Shown here: piece after piece, positions 5,740 to 57,219 of the stretch
Position numbering within the stretch: the first letter of the stretch is position 1
How the letters are laid out: each line of letters opens with the position of its first letter
Source of the DNA: Octopus vulgaris
Taxonomy: Eukaryota
Reading direction: 5' to 3'
Length of the DNA stretch: 64,000 bases
NCBI GenBank assembly: GCA_951406725.2
Contig: OX597824.1
Span: 90,086,001 to 90,150,000 of the forward strand
The notes under the pieces: model-generated
The model's input: the letters and a program-made list of their open reading frames with translations, nothing else
Databases searched by the model: none
What the model was told of the DNA's origin: nothing
Position numbers and translations under genes: made by a program

Positions 5740-5848
5740 AGACAACGTGATCCCAGACTGAATGAGATCCTTTTTCCATTCTACGACCGCAATAGAATAC
5801 TTCAGATCGTCACCCAATACGAGGAGAGTGATGAAATGAAGAAGAAAG
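5740..5848 (+). CDS. PLCB4: PLC-beta4 exon [36 protein letters not shown]
   Basis: TTCCAG acceptor, GT donor at 5849, 109 nt; [12 protein letters not shown] motif. Confidence 0.95.
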
Positions 5849-21561: not shown

Positions 21562-21627
21562 GATGCAAGTATTGGATCCCTGAACCAAAATTCTCCTGAG
21601 GTTTGCTCCTCAATAAGTTCTCCTGAG
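21562..21627 (+). CDS. Candidate cassette exon in X-Y linker [13 protein letters not shown](VCSSISSPE)
   Basis: TTTTTTTGTCATTCCAG acceptor; in-frame donors GAG|GTTTGC (21600) and GAG|GTACGT (21627); phase 0-0, no stops. No transcript evidence. Confidence 0.45.
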
Positions 21628-31164: not shown

Positions 31165-31176
31165 GATTTTGACAAA
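31165..31176 (+). CDS. Candidate 12-nt microexon DFDK (or the 3' end of a 46-nt exon from 31131)
   Basis: TCTTTTCCTGCAG|GATTTTGACAAA|GTGAGC; phase 0-0 fits flanking exons; long pyrimidine tract upstream. Confidence 0.55.
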
Positions 31177-42375: not shown

Positions 42376-42517
42376 GGTGCCCTAACTGCTGATGAAGTAG
42401 CTGCCCTTATGTCAAACTACCAATACACGGGTGCCACAACCAACATCCACCCTTATCTCTCTGCTATGGTCAACTATGCTCAACCCGTCAAGTTCCAGTC
42501 GTTTGAAATAGCGGAAG
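42376..42517 (+). CDS. PLCB4: PLC-beta4 exon, linker end / Y-box start [47 protein letters not shown]
   Basis: CAG/GTACTT, 142 nt; [11 protein letters not shown] motif. Confidence 0.97.
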
Positions 42518-44029
42518 GTACTTCATCTTCGACTTCCTTTCATGTTTCCTCCTCCTCCTCCTCTGATTCTTACTCTCACTCTTGTTTTCCTCCTCTCCTC
42601 ATTCTCTCTTTTCCTTTTCCCTTTTCCCTTTCCTGAGCTGGCTGAACTGTTAACATGTTGGATAAAAATGCTTTGTTGCATTTTCTCTGGCTCTTCACAT
42701 TCTGAGTTCAAACCCTGCTGAGGTCGACTTTGTCTTTCTTTCTTTCTGGGCCAACAAAGTGAAGTATTAATCAAGTACTGGGGATGATGTAATCGACTTG
42801 CCCCACTCCCTTTGAAATTACAGGCCTTGTGCCAAAATTTGAAAGAATTATTATTGTTGTTACTTGAGATTCCATTTCCCCAGCAGTAAACACACCTTCA
42901 ATGATACATATAATATATAAGCAGTTAGGTTACTTGGCTTACAATCATAAAGGCCATGAGTTCAATTCCTGGCCACACATTGTGTCCTTGAGCAAGACAC
43001 TTTATTTTTCACATTGCTCCAATCCATTCAACTGGCAAAAATGTATTGTACCTGTAATTCAAAGTGGCCAACCTTGACACATCCTGAGGATCACATCAAT
43101 GGTATGTGTGTCTGTGGGGTACTCAGCCACTTGCCTGTTAATTCTAAGAGCAGGTGGTTCCATCGATCAGATCAACTGGAACCCTCATCGTCATAATGGA
43201 CAGAATTCCAGTTTTATTCCCTTTTGCAGAATTAGAGAGATGAAATGTATATAATTCAGATAATCTGGCGTGGGAGTGGCTGTTCGGTAAGTAGCTTGCT
43301 TCCCAACCACATGGTTCTGGGTTCAGTCCCACTGCGTGACACTATCGGCAAGTGTCTTCTACTATAGCGTCGGGCCGACCAAAACCTTGTGAGTGGATTT
43401 GGTAGACGGAAACTGAAAGAAGCCCGTCATATGTATGTATATATATGTGTGTGTTTGTGTGTCAGTGTTTGTCTCCCCAGCATTGCTTGACAACCGATGC
43501 TGGTGTGTTTACGTCCCCGTAACTTAGCAGTCCGGCAAAAGAGACCAATAAAATCAGTACTAGGCTTACAAAGAATAAGTCCTGAGGTCGATTTGCCCGA
43601 CTAAAAGACAGTGCTCCAGCATGGCCGCAGTCAAATGACTGAAACAAGTAAAAGAGTAATCTGTTTTCTACATCTAAATCCTACCTTATCCACCTTCAGT
43701 GTTCATCTCTCTCTAAGATTACTAAATCAGGTGTCAGAATTATTATACATATTTGGATTTTCTTCAGCCCTAGGACACATAAAACCAGTTACCCAGTTAC
43801 CATGGCATGTAAATGACTAAGGTCAAAACATTTGTCCGGAACTGGTGCAGTTTTCAAGGCCAGTAATTTTGAAGGGAGGGGAGAAATAAATTGCATTGAT
43901 CAGAGGAATGAAATGTAATGTTGACCTTAACACCGTTTGAACTCAGAGTATAAAGAGAAGGAAGAAATACATCTAAGCATCTTGTCAATTCACTAATGAC
44001 CCTACAAGCTTGTAATAATAATAATAATG

Positions 44030-44061
<32 letters not shown>

Positions 44062-44795
44062 TAAAAATAATAATGATAATAATCAAAAAAATGATAGGCT
44101 ACAGCAAATATTCTGCTCAATACCACAGATTTGCTTGTCAGTTGTTTGACCTTAACCAGTTGAGCATGTCCCTTAGTGGCTGACGATATGTGCATCTCTG
44201 ATCACGAGCAGAAGTAGTTGGGGAGAATCATAGCCGTGTGTTGAAAGGAATTCTTGAAGGTTTGGATAATTCACCTCTGGAAACATGGGTGTTTCATTCA
44301 TCATCCTTAAACAATCCTTTTTCAGGGACCTTTTGAGTGGGATCAGCTACTCGGCCAGAAGAAAATTCTAACTGGACCCCAGTTGCAAGGTCATGTGCTG
44401 TTTATCTTGATATGAGATCACCATGTCACGCACATATGGTTGTGATGCATGTGCCTGGTGTACCCTTATCAGACGGGTAGTCATGATGGGTATACAGGGC
44501 TTCATATATTTTACCCCAGTGTCACTTTGATGGCATGCACTGTTCTCTCACTCAATAATAATAATAATAATAATTTATAATAATCTTTCTACTATAGGCA
44601 CTAAGCCTGAAATTTTAGGGGAGGGGACTAATTGGCTACGTCGACCCCAGTGTTTCACTGGTATTTAATTTATCAACCCCGAAAGGATGAAAGGCATAGT
44701 CGACCTCAGTCGAGTTTGAACTCAGAACATAGTGACAGGTGAAATACTACTAAGCATTTCATCCAGCGTGCTAATGATTCTGCCAGCTTGCCACC

Positions 44796-44832
<37 letters not shown>

Positions 44833-45765
44833 TGATAACTAAATGACTTTTTATATATTTTTCTTGATTTTTTTTTCCCATTATTTCTAATTTTAGTTTA
44901 TTACATCTTATAATGCACATTTGTTGCAACGCTAGATATAACAGCTAATGTATTTCCATTGACCAATCTATCTACATATCTATATCTCTCTCTATCTTCC
45001 TCTGTATTTTCTGATCCCTCTCTTCTTCTCTCCCCCTTCAGCATCACCCTAATCCCGTGGCCTCTTCTTTTCTCTCTCAGCACAATTTTCCTTGATTTTT
45101 CCTTTCTAAATAAAGCAATACAGAGTTTAAAATCAAGAACCCCTCACCCACCCATCCACCCGTCCAAACCACTAAAACACCCCTGTCCTCCAGCACCACC
45201 TCCTCCATCAACAAGCATCAGCACCACCACCTCGTTCACAACCAACACCACCCCACAATCTCTATCACCTGCAACACAACACCAACATCATTATCATCAT
45301 TACTATCATCATTACCATCATCATTACCATCATCATCATCATCATCAGTGTCACCATTGTTTGTCATCATGATCATCCTCATCATCTTCGTCACCATTAT
45401 CACACCAAACCATTGCTGTCATCAGCTTCTGCCAACAACGTCATCAAAACCACCATTACCACCCTCCCTAACACCAACACCACTATCACCTACACCATTA
45501 CCACCATCACCATCACCACCACAACCACTGCCATCACCTTCAACATCTTAACCACCACCACCATCATCACCACCACTATCATCATCATCATCATCATCAT
45601 CACCACCACAACCACTGCCATCACCACCACAACCATTGCCATCATCATCACCAGTCTAACCACCACCACCACCTCAATTATACTCACCTGATGCACAACC
45701 CCTCTCACCACTGCCTCCAACTATTGCTACTCTCTATGTCAGTTTGCATGTCTTTATACTTCCAG

Positions 45766-45850
45766 AGCGAAACATCCATTACCACATGTCGTCGTTCAAC
45801 GAGAACGCCGGTTTAGGCTATTTAAAAACTCAGGCTATAGAATTTGTCAA
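45766..45850 (+). CDS. PLCB4: PLC-beta4 mutually exclusive Y-box exon A (E)[27 protein letters not shown](N)
   Basis: 85 nt, phase 1-2; U2-type TTCCAG acceptor; U12-type GTATCCTT donor. Confidence 0.96.
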
Positions 45851-45858
45851 GTATCCTT
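45851..45858 (+). other. U12 (minor spliceosome) 5' splice site GTATCCTT, exon A
   Basis: Exact match to U12 consensus RTATCCTT. Confidence 0.92.
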
Positions 45859-46075
45859 GTTCGTTCTAAACTGAAACCAGAAAAAAAAAACAAAAAAAAA
45901 AAGAAGAGAAACGAAAAAAATCAAAACTCCAATTCTACATGTTGTTGGGCCCTGATGGGAACTTAGAATGATCCAGCATTAGGAACCCTGCAAACAAACA
46001 TCAATCTGTTGATTTTGCTACCCTGGCCTTCCCTAGCACTGCTCGCTTCTCCCCCATTTTTGTTTATATATTGTA

Positions 46076-46446
46076 CTAGCACTGTGACCCGGCAACACCG
46101 GGTCATAGTGCTAGTGCATGCATATACAGCTGCGTGCGTGCTCACATACATGCGAGTACTGTCCAAATCTCTGACCAATCACCTACAGCTAGCTGGCGTT
46201 CAATTGGCGTATCAAGTTTCGGGCATTTTGATTGGGTTTTGGATAGAAAATTCACAAAAAAGTTACTTCTTTTGATTTTTTTAATGGCTTTGCTGGGTGA
46301 CTGGGGAAATGTAAAGATGTGCACGACCATCCTTGGACGGTTTTGAATGACCATAGAAAGTGCGAGCCCTCTAACTGAAAAATTGTGGATTTGTATAAAG
46401 GATACACACACACACACACATATTTTGTCGTTTATATATAGAGAGA
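46076..46446 (-). mobile_element. Helitron-like non-autonomous element with strong terminal hairpin
   Basis: CTAGCACTGTGACCCGG-caaca-CCGGGTCATAGTGCTAG hairpin at the CTAG end; TCTCTATATA at the other end. Confidence 0.55.
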
Positions 46447-46564
46447 TATCTAGGTATTATGTGTGTGTGTGTCTGTGTGTGCACGTGTGTGAGTGTGTGC
46501 ACTTTTAATAGGTAGACCCCCTTGATTCAAACACAAAGCTTTACAGCAGTTCATAAAACAGGTT

Positions 46565-46608
46565 GAACCAACTAGTTTCGTTTTTAATTAAAACCTCATC
46601 AGGGATTC
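46565..46608 (-). ncRNA. Minimal hammerhead motif (antisense)
   Basis: Reverse complement gaatcc-CTGATGA-g-gtttt aatta aaaac-GAAACTAGTT-ggttc; palindromic ACTAGT helix III. Confidence 0.5.
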
Positions 46609-46738
46609 TTTGCATCTGTTTTACAAGCTGCAGAGAGAATACAGCACTTACTGTTTATTGAAAGGTAAATATTGTTGTGCCAGGTATTAATAACCAGAGT
46701 CACAAAGCAGCACAGGTCTTAGATGTGTGTGTATTTTG

Positions 46739-46777
<39 letters not shown>

Positions 46778-47257
46778 TATGTATGTACATGAGTAAGCAC
46801 ATAAATGCGAAACAAGGTGGGAAAAAAATTAGTACTCAAATGCCACAGGTAGAGTAATGTGTTTTGTTTTTATTATTAAAGCTGCAAAACCATCACAAAA
46901 TCTGCTACTCAGAGTTTTATATCCTCATTCGTCAGGCAGCTGCAATCAAGAATCTTTATTGCAACAGCCCAACGAAAAGGAACATGACACTTTGAGTAGC
47001 AGTTTTTGTGATGTTTTTGCAGCTTTGATAATAAAAAATATATATATATATGTATGTATATATAGCTAAAAATGGTAAGACAACAAAAGAATGAAAGAGA
47101 CCTCGATATTATGTAAAATAAAGGAATTTATCTGTAAATATAATATGTGACAATTATTCGGTAGCCATGATAAAACTCCGAGTTTCGGATGTTGAGGTGG
47201 AAATCCACACTGCCATCGGAAAAAATGCTATGAAAAAAAAACAGAAAAAAAAGGCTG

Positions 47258-47318
47258 GATAACTGAAGAGATGGCGGCGTGAATTTCCACCTTGGCATCT
47301 GAAACTCAGAGTTTTATC
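47258..47318 (+). ncRNA. Type I hammerhead motif within inverted repeat ~47130-47355
   Basis: gataa-CTGAAGA-gatg...catc-t-GAAACTCAGAGTT-ttatc; stems I, II and III all pair. Confidence 0.55.
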
Positions 47319-47353
47319 ATGGCTACCGAATAATTGTCACATATTACGTTTAC

Positions 47354-47392
<39 letters not shown>

Positions 47393-48672
47393 ATACAAGA
47401 AGATGGAATGAATAGGCTTTAATCCAAATCCCTATATTCATTTCTGTGCATCAATATCAGCTGGTAATACTGAGTGTTTCACATATTAAACACATTATTG
47501 CATTGATAAGATTCAGCAATAAGCATGGACCTGCATGACTTCATGTGGGTTGGGTCGACCTTTACCCTGTAAGCAAAATAGCGCAGGTAGAAGCTGTGCA
47601 GAGGGCCTTTGATAAACCTATAGGTGTGTGTGTTCACATGTAATGGGAAAAAAACCCAATGCAGCCAAAAATTGGTTGCAGCATTTAATTCAGTATTGGT
47701 CACTTCTCTCTGTAGTTGATTCATTTTGTCTTTCATTGTCCAGCAAGATCAGTGAAATCAGTGCCAGACAAAGTACTGGACAGAGAGGTCATCATAATTG
47801 TTAACCACCCCACATCAGTATTTGAAGGCAGTTACCTGTAACTGCTTTCCTTTAGCCCCAAAATCATTGCAGTTGCTTGTTGGGTCAGGACAACAAATAA
47901 TGGTGATGTAGCAACACCAATTTTACAGTAAGGATTCCACCTACCTATCTGGGTACTTTGTGGCCTAACAACCTATTTATAAATTTATCTACCTACCTAC
48001 CAACCTACTTACCTACCTACCTAACTACCTACCTACCTACCTACCTCTCTTTTTCTCTCCCCTTATTGCCACAACTTCTGTACCCCAAAAACAACCATCT
48101 TCCCGGTAGAAAACTGTTCCACAGGTCCAGAAATACTAAGGAATTGAGACAGGATTTGATGGAGTGACAAGGGACATTTTAGATTTCATTCCCCTTTCTA
48201 CCGAGAACAGGTCTTGTTCTAGAATATTAGAGGCTGTTTCAAGTTAATTAATTAATCAATTAATTAATTGATTGATTAATTAATTAATCCATTAAAACAA
48301 TGGTCTGATTTTTAACTAAATTGTCAACCTTTAACTTCCATCTCCTCCAGAGCCAGTAAATAATTAAAGGTAATGCAGTCAATAGTTACAGGTAATTAGC
48401 ATTATGTCTAGTTAAAAAAAAAACAACAACAGAAGATATTCATTATCATTGTTACTGATGTTGTTGTTATTGTTTCTGTTGGATTTCTTTTAACAACTTT
48501 GAAAATATTTTGTGAATTTTAATTTTGTTATTTTTGCTATTAATCTAACTTGTTTTCTTTTGATATTAATTTAAATGTAATATTTTAAATTTGTTTTTAA
48601 AACATACCATATATTACAATCAATATGCATACACACTCATACACATCTGTGCAGGTATATACATACCCACCC

Positions 48673-48724
<52 letters not shown>

Positions 48725-49496
48725 GCACACACACACACAGAGACAGAGACAGAGGATAGTAAGAAAATATAGGCCTCACCTTTATGGTAGTTGGAGTTGC
48801 AGGTTCTGCTTGGCTGAGAAGAGGATCATACTAAAGAACTCTTTTCACCCAGGCACCTATCTTAATCGTAGGAGCGAAATTTTCTAATCCTGTCCACATG
48901 AGTGCAGGTTTGTCTTAGCATACTGGTTAGCAACATCTCAGCTATTTCCCCCATCTAAAATCTGAGGAATAAATATAAGACTTGCTACATCCATTTGTGG
49001 TACATGTACATACATAAATACATATTGACTACCTCCGCAACCATCTCCCATCCCTATTCACTCCACTTGACTACATGACTCTTCTCTTACCTGGTCCAGC
49101 CCCAACCTACAAGTAAGTATCCAACATACTATGATGGGCTTTTTTTCCAGATCTCAATCCAAGGGATGTAACTCTGGTGAACTAAAAAGTTTTTCTCCCT
49201 CGGTTCCAAACAGGACAATTTCATTCTGGATTTTACAGCAGATATAAAAACAGCTGAATGGATGTGGCACATTCAGACTTCCAGAAGGAAAAGCGATTGC
49301 ACCAAGCTATTCCTTACAGCCTTTTCTGATGATTGTTGGGCTGACCAAAGCCTTGTGAGTGGATTTGGTAGATGGAAATTGAAAGAAGCCCATCGTATAT
49401 ATATATATATACAAATCATCTGTGTCGTTGTTCAGCATGAAAATGCCAAACTCTCATCCGTCGTCTAATGAGGGGAGAGTCCATTTTATTTTTAAA

Positions 49497-49892
49497 CTAG
49501 CAGTATTGCTCGGCGTTGCTCGGGTTTGTTTCGACCCTTTAGAATTAGAATTTTTGGAAAGTAAAAATTTTGCATTATGTAGCTTGTTATTCTCTTTAAG
49601 TGAACATTTTTCTGGTTGAAATACACCAAAAAATGGTGACACAGCAATCAAAAAATCGTAAAAAAATAGGGATTTTCATAGAAAAAAAGGCACCTTTTTG
49701 ATGTAAATAATTTTTGGTGTTAACATGGTCCGATTTGAATTTTTTCTTCTACAGAAGGAAGAGCAAGCCTTCTTCTATCATACTCTCAATTTTGGTCAAC
49801 TTGTGCCGCAGGGTCTCAGAGGAGATAGTGTTAGTTGAAGGCTACCAAACCTGCCACACACACACAGACAACTTCAGCTTTATATATATAGA
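49497..49892 (-). mobile_element. Non-autonomous Helitron-like element
   Basis: 3' end (ACAAACCCGAGCAACGCCGAGCAATACTGCTAG) shared with 9107-9502; TCTATATA 5' end. Confidence 0.7.
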
Positions 49893-50630
49893 TATATCAC
49901 ATGATCACATGTTCAATAAAGCTGTTAGTTGTTGTTAAATATCACTCGACACCAGCTTTACACCATTTTAGCCTTTAAATGATGCCACCCCACTAGCCAG
50001 GCAAGCAGGCCAAAATTGCCCTCTGATTGAAAGGAGACTGCAGCAACACGAAATGAAACATTTGGCTCAAGAACACAACATGCTACCCAGTCACGGAATT
50101 GAACCTGTGATCTACTGATTATGAGTGCGATAGCCTAACCACTAGGCCACACGCCTTCACACACACACAAACATACACACACATGCATGCACAAACATAC
50201 ACATGTCCATATATTTGTTTGTTCAGCGTGTAGAAGTGTGGACATTGTCCAGAGTCACACAGTGTCTGGACACTGTCTGTGCTTCAAGAGACATTTGACC
50301 GTTTATAGAAGCAATCCAACTACACACATACACACTCCTTCTCTCTCTCCTTCTCTCTCTCCTTCTCTCTCTCTCCATCTCTCTCTGTCTCTCTCTGTCT
50401 CTCTCTCTCTCTCTCTCATCTCTCTGCATCTTTCTATCATGTTTGTGTTTTTTTTTTCTCACTACTCTTACCATTGATGTTGCTGCTAATTATTAATGTC
50501 GTTGTTCTTGTTGTTGTTGCATGAATCATTGTTTTTTTTTTGTGTTTCTGTTGTGTTTTTATTTATTTTCACTTCTTTTTGGTGTCGTTTTTTTCTTTTC
50601 TTCTTTTTTTCTTTTGGTTTTATTTGCAAG

Positions 50631-50715
50631 CTAGAAGACTTCATTACAACATGTCTTCGTTCAACGAGAACGCAGGACTGAGTCTCATCAAACACAGCTG
50701 CTTGGATTTTGTCGA
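50631..50715 (+). CDS. PLCB4: PLC-beta4 mutually exclusive Y-box exon B (A)[27 protein letters not shown](D)
   Basis: Same length (85 nt) and phase as exon A; 16/29 residues identical; synonymous changes in [10 protein letters not shown]; long T tract + AAG acceptor; GTATCCTT donor. Confidence 0.9.
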
Positions 50716-50723
50716 GTATCCTT
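50716..50723 (+). other. U12 5' splice site GTATCCTT, exon B
   Basis: Exact U12 consensus; first 11 intron nt identical to those after exon A. Confidence 0.9.
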
Positions 50724-51942
50724 GTTGTATTGTGCTCCGTCTGTCCATCCGTCCATCCTTCTGTCCATTTGTTTGTGTGTCTATATCTGGTGGTGGAGTG
50801 GCGAGGGGGACAAAGATGATGCATAGTGTTAATTGTGTGGGGTGGGGAGTAGAGGGTGCAGCTTTGAATCATATTCTTGGCCCCTTAACAATTAAACCAG
50901 ACGTAACTGGGTCAAACCCTTTTTTGTTTTATGCTAATACTGACCAGATTCGACCTCGCGTACCTATCCTGCAATGTTGTTCTAAAAAGGTGCAATCGCA
51001 TCATTGAAATCTTGAAGCTACAAGATAATCCATGATTAGTTCAAAACAATGTAGATAAACAAGGATTATATCTAACTGGGTAATCTGACTGCTGAAAGGT
51101 TAGGGACCAAATTCATGTCTGAGAGTCCAAAGATAGCATTTAAGGAATTCTACCCATGACCATCCCTTTTACTATTCTAGACTCCTAGATGTACAGATGA
51201 CTGTGTGGTTAAGAAGTTTGCTTTTCAACCACATGGTTCCAGGATCAATCACTGACAGAGTTCTTGAGACAAGTGCCTCTAGCGGTGATCCAAGGGCAAT
51301 TAATGTGGAGTCACGTGTATTTTCTAGCACTACACCTGCCCAGGTTTGGAAAAGAGTTGTTATATGTTAAGAGAAGAAGAAAAATAAAGGATCAAAGATA
51401 AGCTAAACTTTTGATCACACTTGTTGCCATCTTCAGAGCATGATCAGATGTGCATCTGATCAAGGTACCAAAGTTAATGTGTTAGAAAGTGATTGGTTCA
51501 ATTCAGAGATCAATACCTCCAAATCTATTCCATATTGTTACGAACATCTTATTTGTGGGTTAATTGATAAGAGTGTTCATATTGTGAGTTTACATCTAAA
51601 GGTTCTTAGTTCAATCTCAAGTGGGACTGTGTACACAGCATGTGATATGACACTTGGTGCGTTAGTGCTTGAATTGACAAAAACATTAATTTGTTTAGTT
51701 TAGAAGTAAAGATTCTTTGCAGGCTATATGGAAACCCCACTGGGGCTGGTGCCACATAAAAAGCACTGATGCTGGTGTGATGTAAAATGCACCCTGAACA
51801 CTCTGTAAAGTGGTTGGCATTAGGAAAGGCATCCAGGCATAGAAGCCTTGCCAAAACTGACACTGGACTACAATACAGTCCTTAGGAACATTGCATCCTG
51901 TTGAAACAGCCAACCAGTGACAGAATGGGAAACAATTATCGA

Positions 51943-51974
<32 letters not shown>

Positions 51975-54276
51975 GATGATGATTTAGTAAGTCAAGGATT
52001 ACATTAGCTGCTGTGTGCTTCTCTCTGTAAAGTAGGCAGGATATGGTTTGAGGAAGATTTGATTTCTTGCAGGTTGAGCAACTATGTACGGGTGCTGGGT
52101 GCCGTTGTTAGTTCACGTGCATATCGATGCATGCACGTACAAGACAGAGAGGGAGGAGAGAGGGGGGGTATTTGAATTCAAACGAAATTATATAACACCA
52201 CCACCACTATTTCTGTTGTTTCTGTGTAAATATTGTCCTGTAAAACTATTACTACTGCTACCACTGGTAGTAGTAGATGTAGTAGTAGTGGTAGTAGTAG
52301 TAGTAGCGATATTGTAATTATATTAATTAATATTTGTTGTATAATCATTTATTTGCTTCTGAATTGTTTTGTTTTATTTTATTTTATTTTAATATTCTCA
52401 TATTTTTGTTTGGGGGCTTTTTTGTGATTTTTATTATTTTAATTTTAATTTATTTTTGTGTTTATTTATTAACTCATATTGCTGGTGTTATGTTGTGAGT
52501 TGTATTTTACAGTGATATCAAAGTGTTTTTGCTATTTGTTAACCAATACTACCTTCTGCCCATTCTTCAAACAAGCATTATAATCCTTTATTTGATGTGT
52601 ATACATGTGTGTTGAAAAATATATATACATATATAGTAAAAGTTGTAGCTGTATGGTAAGTAGCTTGCTTCCTAACCACATGGTTCCGGGTTCAGTCCTA
52701 CAGTGTGACACCTTGGGTAAGTGTCTTCCACTATAGCCTTGGGCCGAGCAAAGCCTTGTGAGTGGATTTGGTAGACGGAAACTGAAAGAAACCCATCGTA
52801 TATATATATATGTTTGTGTGTCAGTGTTTATCCCCCAGCAGTTGTCAAGTGATGTTGGGGAAACAAAAAAACAAACACACACATACATACATACATACAT
52901 ACATATATATGTATGATGGGCTTCTTTCAGTTTCTGTCTACCAAAACCACTCACAAGGCATTGGTCGGCCCAAGGCTATAGTAGAAGACACTTACTTACC
53001 CAAGATGTCACGCTGTGGGACTGAACCTGGAACCATGTGGTTGGGAAACAAGCTACTTACCAAACAGCCACACCTGCGCCTATACTCTCACGCACACAGA
53101 AACCAATTTAACTTCAAATTACATACCAACTAACCAAATAACTCCATGTGTTTTCCTGTATGTTTGAAGGGAAATGATGAAATTATGAAAAGCACCAGTG
53201 TTATAGTCCACATATCATTTGACTGAAATCCACAGCTGGATATGTCATATAGTACATCATAGAAAACCATAAAGCAGATAGTTTGCTCATAAAATATTTA
53301 GTTACACCATCATTAACAAACAATAATAATTAGTTATTTATAATGTAAATTATATGATTCAATTGCATTGTCAAATCTTCAGAGATTCATAATTCTCATT
53401 CTTAATTTGTAAAATTAGTAATGAAAATTACGAATCTCTGATGATTTGACAACTTTAGTTTAGGAATGGAGGTCTTGGTATTGTATTTCTTCCTTCATAA
53501 GGCATTTCAACAATACATGGTTCATATCTATCATGAATACACTGGACTGGTGACAGTGTTGCTATCAGTGGACAATGTAACTGGATGATATAATTTATAT
53601 AATGTATAGCTAATTATCATTCTTTGTTAATGAAATGTGTGTAAGATGATGTAACTGAATATCTGAATGAGGTGATTGACTGTGGCTGTTTGGGATGCTA
53701 ACAATTTGGCACGGCTGACTGGATATTGAACCTGTTTGAGCCACAGTACTTTTTGGTACTGGAGGCAAACAGAGAGAGAGAGAGAGAGGAAGGTGCAGTA
53801 ATATAATCGGATGTCAAGTAAGTCATCATTGACTCAGCAATGCCAAATGAATGGTACCAAAATGCTTCATACCCAATGCATAGATCATTGTTGATGTCAA
53901 AAATGGATAAACTGATGCTTTCCAAGAAATATATCATGCTTCTTTAAGTCTCCCTTCAGAAATATAATGGACCAGTGATTGGCTCACAGGAGATTTATAA
54001 CTTACAAGATTACTGCTCTCAAAAGAGGGAAATAAGCTAGAGAAGAATATAAATGGATGTGAATGTGTGACTATATATTTATGTATTTATGTGTGTGTGT
54101 ATATAAATGTGTGCACATGCATGCACACACACACACACATATATATATAGAGAGAGAAAGAGCATAATAGGAGATATATGTATATGTGTGTATATATGTA
54201 TGTATGTATGTGTGTAAATTTATATATTTATGAATATTTATACATACATACACATATATATATATAATAAAAAAAT

Positions 54277-54315
<39 letters not shown>

Positions 54316-54448
54316 TACACACGTATATATATTTTGTCAGGCATGCTAATGATTCAACACTCTCACCACTTTAATAATAATAATAATAATAATAATAATA
54401 GTAATAACAATAATAATAACAATAATAATAATAATAATTTTGTTGTTT

Positions 54449-54676
54449 TCTGGGGAGAGTCATTTTATTTTAATGCCTTGTTAATTAACACACTCTCAGG
54501 TTCAATTTCCACTCATTTACTTATTTATTTATTTTTGTTGCTTCTTGCAACGTCTTCATGCAAGAAGCATCGAAAATTTTAGAAAAAAAAAAGGAAAAAA
54601 AGAAGTAAATGAGTGGAAATTGAACCTGTGAGTGTGTTAATTAACAAGGCAGTAAAACAGAATGACTCTCCCCAGA
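54449..54676. repeat. Inverted repeat, ~70-bp arms
   Basis: CTGGGGAGAGTCATT...CCACTCATTTACTT / AAGTAAATGAGTGG...AATGACTCTCCCCAG. Confidence 0.85.
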
Positions 54677-55030
54677 CACAATAAAATATGCTTCAACACA
54701 GGCGTTCATGTAAAGAATCTTGCAAACCAGGTACAAAAACGAAATAATAACAACAACAGTTTCAAACTTTGGCACAAGGCCAGCAAGTTCAGGGGTGGAG
54801 GTATATCAATTACATCGGCCCCAGTATGCAACTGGTATATATTTTATCGACCCTGAAAGGATGAAAGGCAAAGTCAACCTCTGTGGAATTTGAACTCAAA
54901 ATGCTGCTGAGCGTTTTGCTTGACATGCTAACAATTCTACCAGCTCACCACCTTAATAATAATAATAATAGTAATAATAATAATAATGATAATTCAAAAT
55001 CCTTTTGAAGTACTTCATTTACTCAAGAAC

Positions 55031-55494
55031 TAAGGAAACAGAAAATGTGTCATGGCCAACTGGAAACGGTGTTTCCTGGGGCTAAATAGCAATAGCATTC
55101 TTCCCTTTTATGGGACTGTCACATTAAGTTGACAACATACCATCGCTTTATCGTGCTGCTACTGTATAAATCTCTTGGAGAGATTTAGAAATGTATTATT
55201 TCTATTTTCGAAATCAGTGAATGTATTTCACTAGAAACATATGTTTCAAAGGTGGGTAGTCATTGACAGCTAGCTAGCCATGCTACTCCAGACTGATGAT
55301 GAGCAATGACTCTGAAACTAGTCTCTGAGTGCTGGCTTTTGCTGGGTGGAGGTGTTTATCTCCCCTTTGAAAACATAAGGACACAGAAAATGTGTCATGG
55401 CCAGCTGGAAACGGTGTTTCCTGGGGCTAAATAACAGTAGCATTCTTCCCTTTCATGGGACTGTCACATTAAGTTGACAACATGCCATCACTTT
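55031..55494 (+). mobile_element. ~1.3 units of a 345-bp tandem element with an internal hammerhead (retrozyme/Penelope-LTR-like)
   Basis: ~119-bp direct repeat at 55031 and 55376; hammerhead motif at 55289-55327. Confidence 0.55.
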
Positions 55495-55944
55495 GTAGAA
55501 AATATTGATTTTCGGAAAGTGTACCTGCATCCTGAGGAAGAATTTCTCTGTTTGAGCTTTGGGTACATTTAATGGAATCTGTTTGATGTTGGTAATTTGA
55601 GTCAGAGTCTCTGGTCTGTGGACGAGATCTTTATTGTATCACTTGCCCGAGGGGTTCTGGGGAGGGTCAATGGAACTGCTCTACCCTTCCTCCTCTGATA
55701 AGGCAATTAAAAAACAGAAGACAATAAGGAAAACACACACACACACGCACATGTATATATATATCCATATATATACATGTGCATGTGTGTGTTTTCCTTA
55801 TATATACATGTGCGTGTGTGTGTTTTCCTTATTGTCTTCTGTTTTTTAATTGCCTTATCAGAGGATACAGGTACACTTTCCAAAAATCAATATTATGTAT
55901 ATATGTGTGTGTGTATACATGTGTTGTATATATGTTTGTGTATA

Positions 55945-56496
55945 TGAGGGTGAGTCAAAAAGTAATACCCTTTTGTTTAGGACAGGTATAATTACCAACA
56001 CAAGAACGTGTATCATACATCGAAATGAAGCTGGTCCTCTGTGGATCACATCCCTACTTCTCAACAACGTCACCGTTTCTCTCAATAGCAATGTTCCGCC
56101 TTCAAATGGGAGCATGTATCTCTGTCCTATAAAATTCTGTTGACTGTTCTTTGAGCCACTTCTTCACTACAAAGCCAAAGAGACAACACCTTCTTTCAAA
56201 GGCTCGTAACAGGTGATGAAACATGGGTTCGTCATTATGAACTGGAATCAAAGAGGCAGTCAATGGAATGACACCACTCTGCGTCACCACCACCGAAAAT
56301 GATCAACACACAAAAGTTAGCTGGAAAAATCATGGCTACTGTCTTTTGGGATGCTCAAGGTATCATTCTGGTCAATTTCTTTTCAAGAAGAAAAATAATA
56401 AACTCATAATAAGCTTCATTTTGATGTCTGATACATGTTCCTGTGATGGTAATTATACCTGTCCTAAACAAAATGGCATTACTTTTTGACTCATCC
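55945..56496. mobile_element. Internally deleted/rearranged mariner element
   Basis: TIRs TGAGTCAAAAAGTAAT / ATTACTTTTTGACTCA; + strand VTGDETWVRHYE..SKRQSME* and AGKIMATVFWDAQG; - strand C-terminal FYRTEIHA...NGDVVEK. Confidence 0.85.
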
Positions 56497-57124
56497 AGCA
56501 AGCTAGGAGGCTGTACCAGACTCCAATCTAATCTGGAAAAGTTTCTACAGCTGGATGCTCTTCCTAATGCCAACCACTCTGAAAGTGTAGTGGGTGCTTT
56601 TTATGTGCCACCAGCATGAGGGCCAGCCAGGCAGTACTGGCATCGACCATGCTTGAATGGTGCTTTTTACGTGCCACTGACATGGGAGTGAGTAAGGTGG
56701 CACTGGCAATGACCACGCTCAAATGGCACTTTTTATGTGTCACTGGCACAAGACCAATCAGGTGGTACTGGCATCGGCCACGGTTATGTATAATTATATA
56801 TTGAAGTGTAGTATGAGATATGACCAACACCCAAAACCAATTTTTACTATCCAGAGACATACAGAGGTGGAAAAACTATAGTATATTAAAAATTAAGATA
56901 ATAATAATAATAATAATATTAATAATAATAATAAAGATGAAGAAGAAGAACAGTTTTTTGTTGCTGCTTGGCTGATGGATGGAGATTAATTCCAAAATGT
57001 TGTTGCAGTGGAGGTCTTTTCATCTTGTATTTAACCATAATAATAATAATGATGATAATTTTGTTTTTTTAATGCTCTTTCTTTTCCAATAAAAGCCCTT
57101 TCCCCACCCCACAATATTCTGCCA

Positions 57125-57146
57125 TTTTCCTTAACATGTTCCCCAG
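57125..57146 (+). other. U12 branch point TTTTCCTTAAC and CAG 3' splice site
   Basis: Exact U12 branch consensus; branch A (57134) is 12 nt from the intron end. Confidence 0.92.
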
Positions 57147-57219
57147 TTATAATAAGCGCCAAATGAGTCGTATCTACCCAAGAGGTGGAAGAGTTGATTC
57201 CAGTAATTATATGCCACAG
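57147..57219 (+). CDS. PLCB4: PLC-beta4 exon [24 protein letters not shown]
   Basis: 73 nt, GTAAG donor; SRIYP motif. Confidence 0.98.

Follow-up and report, generated by a model that had tools for sequence, protein, structure and literature searches.

A putative pair of mutually exclusive exons between U2- and U12-type introns in the PLCβ4/NorpA gene of Octopus vulgaris

Results

The locus and its two exon copies

The stretch of DNA studied here, hereafter the window, comprises 64,000 nt of contig OX597824.1 of Octopus vulgaris, and all positions are numbered from its start. It carries exons of a phospholipase C (PLC) gene, PLCβ4/NorpA, among them two copies of one exon, A and B, that are preceded by acceptors of the major (U2) spliceosome type and followed by donors of the minor (U12) type. 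The identity of the gene, already proposed in an initial annotation made from the sequence, is borne out by the presence of PH, EF-hand, X and Y domains, by its closest named relatives, which are PLCβ4 proteins, and by the exon at 42376-42517, the peptide of which is 100% identical to the Octopus PLCβ4-like protein P0001. This protein maps onto the window as 17 exons (residues 230-820), to which exon B and a 12-nt microexon have to be added. The peptides of exons A and B belong to the PI-PLC Y domain (PF00387, residues 602-716); both exons are 85 nt long, enter in phase 1 and leave in phase 2, and are identical at 52 of the 85 nt. Re-reading the window sequence confirmed the coordinates, lengths and phases first given for them. 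Exon A is encoded in the octopus proteins P0001, P0125 and P0127, and exon B in P0121-P0124, P0126 and P0128. A sensitive tblastn search with both exon peptides found no third copy in the window, and a whole-genome search with exon B returned no places beyond A and B. The features of the cassette are as follows (a slash marks the exon-intron border).

42376..42517, + strand: constitutive upstream exon, end of the X-Y linker and start of the Y domain; U2-type donor AAG/GTACTT
45766..45850, + strand: exon A, ancestral-like copy, 85 nt; acceptor TTCCAG without U12 branch point
45851..45859, + strand: U12-type donor of exon A, CAA/GTATCCTTG
45851..50630, + strand: hybrid intron, 4780 nt; U12 donor, U2-type acceptor
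50631..50715, + strand: exon B, derived copy, 85 nt; AAG acceptor
50716..50728, + strand: U12-type donor of exon B, CGA/GTATCCTTG
57127..57146, + strand: common U12 branch point and AG acceptor; TTCCTTAAC at 57127-57135, AG at 57145-57146
57147..57219, + strand: constitutive downstream exon, with Arg658 and Tyr660 of the Y domain

Splice sites of the cassette

Both exons are followed by the same donor, GTATCCTTGTT, which has one mismatch to the U12 consensus GTATCCTTT in A as in B, against three to seven in the other 15 of the 17 donors scored (one of these 15 rows was misplaced by 2 nt, an ordinary GTGAG donor being actually there). Neither donor is preceded by AG at positions -2/-1, the contexts being AA/GT for A and GA/GT for B; according to Kwon et al. 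(PMC10853781), true U12 GT-AG donors never follow AG, and an AG before the donor marks sites misclassified as U12. The genome encodes U11, U12 and U6atac, and the 5' end of its own U11 pairs with the donors of A and B at -7.4 and -7.8 kcal/mol, versus -4.1 and +0.3 for the two flanking donors. Consensus, pairing and context thus uphold the U12 type initially attributed to both donors.

Regarding the acceptors, the best branch-point match upstream has four mismatches for A, three for B (range -8 to -44 for both) and none for exon 57147, and the only TTCCTTAAC of the window ends 11 nt before the latter. The single U12 branch point and AG that had been placed before exon 57147 are therefore indeed there, and the intron between A and B is, as had been claimed, a hybrid with a U12 donor and an acceptor without U12 branch point. 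Both acceptors had also been described as pyrimidine-AG sites of U2 type: the type holds, while the acceptor of B reads AAG. Pairing of the genome's U12 is strongest at the 57147 acceptor (-10.8 versus -5.6 and -7.8 kcal/mol), a test that is indicative only, because the B acceptor, too, gains -7.8 from its U-rich tract. The window holds no excess of these motifs (RTATCCTT is found five times versus 6.8 expected, and TTCCTTAAC once versus 0.76), so that the evidence lies in their position and not in their frequency; by our own arithmetic, the donor motif has a chance of about 5e-5 per position, and of about 3e-9 for two named positions. As foreseen for both splicing errors, the frame is disrupted: the exon-skipping product meets a stop 17 nt into exon 57147, and the double-inclusion product right at the start of B.

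A U12-like branch point, CCCCTTAAC, followed by an AG 11 nt later, is found at 50880-50900, 165 nt behind donor B. It could be a candidate alternative U12 acceptor, though it is likely a chance occurrence, since its core motif occurs 12 times on that strand. As for the minor-spliceosome RNAs, U6atac has 43 genome-wide matches over the Rfam cut-off, on many chromosomes (L024, L025 and others), and U11 and U12 have five and three; the surplus U6atac matches are probably retrocopies.

Ancestry of the U12 intron

In the ancestral PLC gene, a single exon stood at this place, flanked by a U2 intron on its upstream side and a U12 intron on its downstream side; it was duplicated in tandem along with its acceptor and its donor. 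In octopus, the PLC-β paralogue on C11 (83.57-83.60 Mb), a separate gene whose C2 exon is closer to the solved cephalopod PLC-β chains 3qr0/3qr1, shows a lone exon here with the GT-AG U12 intron right behind it. On C17 (about 47.314-47.316 Mb, minus strand, L033), the corresponding intron of another PLC gene is of the AT-AC U12 subtype, and on C13 the site is uninterrupted in a third paralogue. Both U12 subtypes, GT-AG and AT-AC, hence occur at the homologous site among octopus PLC paralogues. The catalogue of minor-intron genes in PMC6717393 includes PLCB4, PLCB1 and PLCB3 of both human and mouse and gives the donor CAAGTATCCTTA and the branch point TTTTCCTTAATA for human PLCB4, and minor introns are given for 60% of PLC genes (PMC6717393; PMC6865273). 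The human and mouse PLCB4 minor intron is like that of octopus in its donor context (CAA/GTATCCTT) and branch-point type, but it is preceded by one exon in the vertebrate and echinoderm clusters examined, and by two in lophotrochozoans. Read-through of the donor yields K-Y-P or E-Y-P in protein models of carp (P0096), Patella (P0144), Bulinus (P0035) and Paralvinella (P0079), as well as in Elysia (P0003), there after a B-type exon; the K-Y-P read-through in models of a carp, a limpet, a snail and an annelid indicates the same intron position. The paralogue introns and the catalogued PLCB4 intron bear out the origin initially supposed for the pair, namely that an exon next to a U12 intron was duplicated in tandem.

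Distribution and divergence of the two forms

The A and B forms are both annotated in all 13 mollusc clusters looked up (octopods, a cephalopod-like Logan cluster, Patella, Haliotis, Gigantopelta, Pomacea, Aplysia, Biomphalaria, Mytilus, scallops, oysters, Mya and venerid clams), and also in the annelid Owenia. Database records from three mollusc classes, both RefSeq isoforms and full-length open reading frames (ORFs) of transcript contigs, carry A or B singly; those of the Logan cluster are full-length ORFs on contigs of 4-4.8 kb, with seven A and six B among the 15 listed. The use of B in spliced RNA, on which the initial annotation depended, is therefore attested, indirectly, by full-length spliced transcript ORFs. 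Its decay in relatives, named beforehand as a sign against the pair, was looked for, and B was found open across the mollusc clusters and in two metagenome loci, L003 and L006, described below. When 17 A/B pairs from the same cluster were aligned, the differences were confined to the exon segment. One form only is seen in Asterias (14 of 14 listed), Acanthaster (9 of 9), Astyanax (three), Monomorium (4 of 4) and Gordionus (two), and among the salmon and pike relatives there is one form among the 15 listed of 84, in two variants that are one residue apart. Ant matches to the B query were considered as a second form and rejected, the four isoforms all carrying a single A-like form.

At the DNA level, 19 metagenome loci were compared. 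L003, with best matches to clams, has both A and B with U12 donors and non-U12 acceptors, and the bryozoan-like L006, with a best match to Bugula (summed 378 bits versus 313 for the next), has the complete cassette with TTCCTTAAC at -11; in both, the A-like copy comes first, as in octopus. L011 is a repeat of L006, and L021 was discarded as a weak chance match, that is, noise. L020 shows one exon with a U12 donor, and then the contig ends; this first exon copy (2130-2214, clam-like) is strongly divergent from A and keeps a perfect U12 donor, and L020 may be a second PLCβ4 gene. In the annelid-like L009, the donor GTATGCTTCT at the homologous site (1044-1053) is decayed (GTATGCTT), a possible U12-to-U2 conversion in progress. 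Four arthropod-like loci, three of them near-identical, have one exon fused to the downstream exon and have lost the U12 intron, and nine loci, which from their gene structure we take to be rotifer-like, show no introns at this site.

The two copies diverge at different rates: mean identity is 85% among 13 mollusc A copies and 75% between these and the fish exon, versus 52% among 12 mollusc B copies and 44% to the fish exon. Six core positions are invariant in both, and a cysteine at octopus position 645 is present in 12 of 12 B copies, where A has alanine or valine. Its equivalent is also found in the second exon of L006, in the Lingula form and in single echinoderm exons, and because of these last it is not diagnostic of B. 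Length variants that keep the phase occur in exon A of L003 (91 nt, 2395-2485, two extra residues) and in scallop B, which has five more residues (P0193, P0196). Within the window, A (45792-45808) and B (50657-50673) share 17 identical nt, synonymous sites included, and at this stretch cephalopod B is more A-like than the B copies of other molluscs; old gene conversion or a common exonic splicing element are possible explanations.

Consequence for the protein

The isoforms P0001 and P0126 differ at 13 positions, all within residues 622-650; the main replacement affects residues 639-647, and Ser631 is intact in both. This serine stands 27 residues before Arg658 and 29 before Tyr660, which is the spacing of Ser522, Arg549 and Tyr551 in PLCδ1, residues described as contacting the inositol ring and its phosphates (PMC12195575). 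Judging from the spacing and from the alignment with PLCβ2/β3 chains, Ser631 would be the equivalent of PLCδ1 Ser522. Since it is kept and the replacement falls mainly on 639-647, the A and B isoforms would be expected to be two active lipases that differ in regulation or kinetics. An AlphaFold2 model of isoform B built on a 32-row alignment had a predicted local distance difference test score (pLDDT) below 50 over the exon region and was not used, and a PDB search with exon A alone gave no match.

Two other exons of the gene vary between isoforms. A 12-nt alternative microexon in the X-Y linker (31165-31176, residues 571-574), with good AG and GTGAG sites, is present in the 1216-aa isoforms and not in the 1212-aa ones, and an in-frame 66-nt exon of the autoinhibitory X-Y linker (21562-21627) is skipped in some octopus isoforms; linker length variants like the latter are also seen in other molluscs.

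Candidate regulatory elements

45286..45673, + strand: CAT/CAC tandem tract shortly before exon A, with 40 YCAY over the last 250 nt
45745..45750, + strand: TGCATG in the pyrimidine tract of exon A
50518..50523, + strand: TGCATG ahead of exon B; L003 likewise has one, about 55 nt before its B
50531..50630, + strand: pyrimidine-rich acceptor region of exon B; 82% C/T over 100 nt, top of 18 exons

The CAT/CAC tract is a possible Nova-type element and probably a microsatellite instead. As a conserved Nova element it finds no support, given that a similar tract (34 YCAY) precedes the exon at 5740 and that none precedes exon A in L003. A and B each have TGCATG, which we take to be an Rbfox-type motif, in the 120 nt before them, and the 16 other exons do not, a post hoc count for which about 0.06 were expected per exon; the motif flanks B in L003 and is absent in L006, where the top pyrimidine content of the octopus B acceptor is not repeated either. 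As signals for the choice of exon, the TGCATG motifs and the pyrimidine tract of B are weak leads. Behind exon B, the first 13 intron bases (50716-50728) are identical in octopus and the bivalve-like L003, and a further UG-rich stretch beyond the U12 consensus is common to both (50716-50734 in the window, 4104-4124 in L003). The stretch behind donor B is a candidate conserved regulatory element.

Discussion

We consider it very likely that A and B are a functional pair of mutually exclusive exons of PLCβ4/NorpA, held separate by the interlocking of U2 and U12 introns. As read from the splice sites, the major spliceosome would remove 42518-45765 and the minor one 45851-57146, with B inside, to yield the A form; for the B form, the major spliceosome would remove 42518-50630, with A inside, and the minor one 50716-57146. 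A should be unable to join B, since the donor at one end of the 4780-nt stretch between them and the acceptor at the other call for different machines, and the expected failure product would be retention of this hybrid intron. Skipping of both exons would need the major spliceosome at the U12 acceptor, which is disfavoured but possible. The idea, put forward initially, that incompatibility between the two machines enforces exclusivity would then hold for the joining of A to B, forbidden by the sites, but skipping is only disfavoured, and incompatibility does not decide which exon is taken. A layout that forbids this junction without choosing between the exons makes the choice a competition between A and B, probably set by RNA-binding proteins, with the weak leads named above. 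Both errors give early stops, so that nonsense-mediated decay (NMD) should remove their products, and it would likely serve as a backup to site incompatibility. A truncated RefSeq isoform of Patella, P0144, reads from A into the hybrid intron, which fits retention of this intron, and also slow U12 splicing.

The backup could in principle be the main actor. If the U12 donors had merely come along with the duplication, and the U2 machinery leaked across the hybrid intron or skipped both exons at an appreciable rate, exclusivity would mainly be the result of NMD acting on frameshifted products. Along these lines, 85 is not a multiple of three and both errors end in early stops; among human clusters of mutually exclusive exons, 60% are of the frame type versus 0.79%, about five, of the U2/U12 type, according to PMC5740500; some U12-like sites are described as being used by U2 (PMC10853781); and the donor of L009 at this site has decayed. 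However, the six A and B donors of the window, L003 and L006 keep the U12 consensus with no or one mismatch, none of them preceded by AG, and none of the six corresponding acceptors has a U12 branch point (three to five mismatches). Moreover, for the analogous Tmem87b, the account in PMC6717393 gives no exon 11-11a junction reads. We therefore regard a mechanism based mainly on NMD as unlikely.

Exclusivity could also be imposed by competing RNA structures of the docker/selector kind or by steric hindrance. In octopus, long inverted repeats do flank both exons (43267-43499 with 52836-53084, about 85% complementary), and the bases right after donor B are common to octopus and L003. But these repeats resemble dispersed mobile elements, the cassette of L006 has no inverted repeat of at least 14 nt, and the 13 short inverted repeats of L003 do not lie at splice sites in a docker pattern. 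As to steric hindrance, the hybrid intron measures 4780 nt in octopus, 1533 in L003 and 413 in L006, well above the 50-nt limit given in PMC5740500, and altogether we find this explanation very improbable. Whatever their role in splicing, the inverted repeats around both exons could form long double-stranded RNA, a substrate for editing or back-splicing. That B is a duplicate in decay or kept silent, with A alone in use, is hardly credible, for although B diverges faster (52% among 12 copies versus 85% among 13 copies of A) and has an AAG acceptor in octopus, it is open, of the same length save for a 5-residue insert in one lineage, keeps the six invariant core residues and the cysteine in 12 of 12 copies, and is represented in three mollusc classes by RefSeq isoforms and transcript contigs.

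Other observations weigh against a pair kept apart by U2/U12 incompatibility, or against its age. The sites were scored by consensus mismatch and duplex energy only. According to PMC10853781, U12 branch points can be recognised by the U2 small nuclear ribonucleoprotein, and both spliceosomes share the use of a few acceptors, which makes the barrier to skipping probably the weaker one. Double-exon proteins are scarce, with one among 111 segments in the 14 two-form clusters (18 rows without the segment being excluded), a partial Biomphalaria model with A before B and an in-frame bridge, but this scarcity says little, given that protein records cannot show frameshifted products. Tubulanus has one form only, and it is B-like in 3 of 3 members. 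Finally, the exon tree has only 28 columns, its bootstrap is unsettled and the non-mollusc second exons are unplaced, even though a single branch divides the mollusc A rows from the mollusc B rows in each of its 200 bootstrap trees (100%). All considered, it is very probable that a single duplication took place before cephalopods, gastropods and bivalves separated, and one lophotrochozoan origin is rather probable. The duplication had initially been assigned to a mollusc gene, as a tandem and independent event; tandem and independent it is, but older than supposed, as it precedes the split of these classes and probably extends beyond molluscs.

The design itself is known from exons 6a/6b (7a/7b) of the JNK genes MAPK8, MAPK9 and MAPK10, which contain a U2-U12 hybrid intron (Chang et al. 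2007, PMC1874599; PMC8329584). As in octopus, the JNK exons are paralogous, with two U2 acceptors, two U12 donors, one upstream U2 donor and one U12 acceptor; both cases involve duplication of an exon plus its flanks and the catalytic domain of a signalling enzyme, and JNK2 exon 6b, like octopus B, has a long pyrimidine tract before the second exon (PMC1874599). The genes are unrelated, however, and octopus is an invertebrate with 85-nt exons that shift the frame on error. Its exons encode the PI-PLC Y domain and are not homologous to MAPK exon 6, so that the same design had a separate origin, in line with the independence from JNK initially claimed. Vertebrate PLCB4 proteins that were looked up have one form, unlike octopus. 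Within the same gene family, subtypes I and II of Drosophila norpA differ by an equal-size alternative exon, the swap lying near residues 130-155, outside the Y domain. Exons 11/11a of TMEM87A/B share with octopus the interlocked U2/U12 introns and exclusive exons of equal length, but they belong to a different, mammalian gene, are 72 nt long and frame-neutral, and have been validated by RNA-seq and reverse-transcription PCR (Olthof et al. 2019, PMC6717393). The U2/U12 cases reviewed in PMC8329584 are vertebrate JNK and TMEM87.

The initial annotation knew of no description of such a case in a PLC gene, and a full-text literature search, with subscription journals outside its coverage, likewise found none. 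The main texts of PMC5740500, PMC1874599, PMC8329584, PMC6717393, PMC9741552, PMC6865273 and PMC10853781 do not contain the term PLCB, and nematode egl-8 is not mentioned in the C. elegans survey of mutually exclusive exons. The five human clusters of PMC5740500 are not named in its main or supplement text, which therefore does not exclude a PLC among them. RefSeq already lists the A and B isoforms as unnamed X1/X2 variants. The octopus pair is thus a real and ancient case of a known rare design, apparently undescribed.

A broader scenario can be drawn, although we offer it tentatively and as less probable than not. A duplication in the lophotrochozoan ancestor would have given rise to a tissue-regulated switch, preserved from the Cambrian onwards, whereby access to the minor spliceosome, together with Rbfox/Nova-type factors, swaps a segment beside the active site of a Gq-coupled lipase. 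The cysteine of B may confer a distinct regulatory property (e.g. redox or lipid modification), and the switch would have been lost wherever the U12 intron was lost.

An independent case older than the mollusc classes implies that the U2/U12 design arises repeatedly and can last. It also provides a natural experiment on the retention of minor introns: lineages with a single exon keep, convert or lose the intron, while those with two exons should be unable to convert it without losing exclusivity. Lastly, it reveals that in Aplysia, octopus, oyster and other molluscan models a central Gq effector has two isoforms of its catalytic domain, both so far unstudied.

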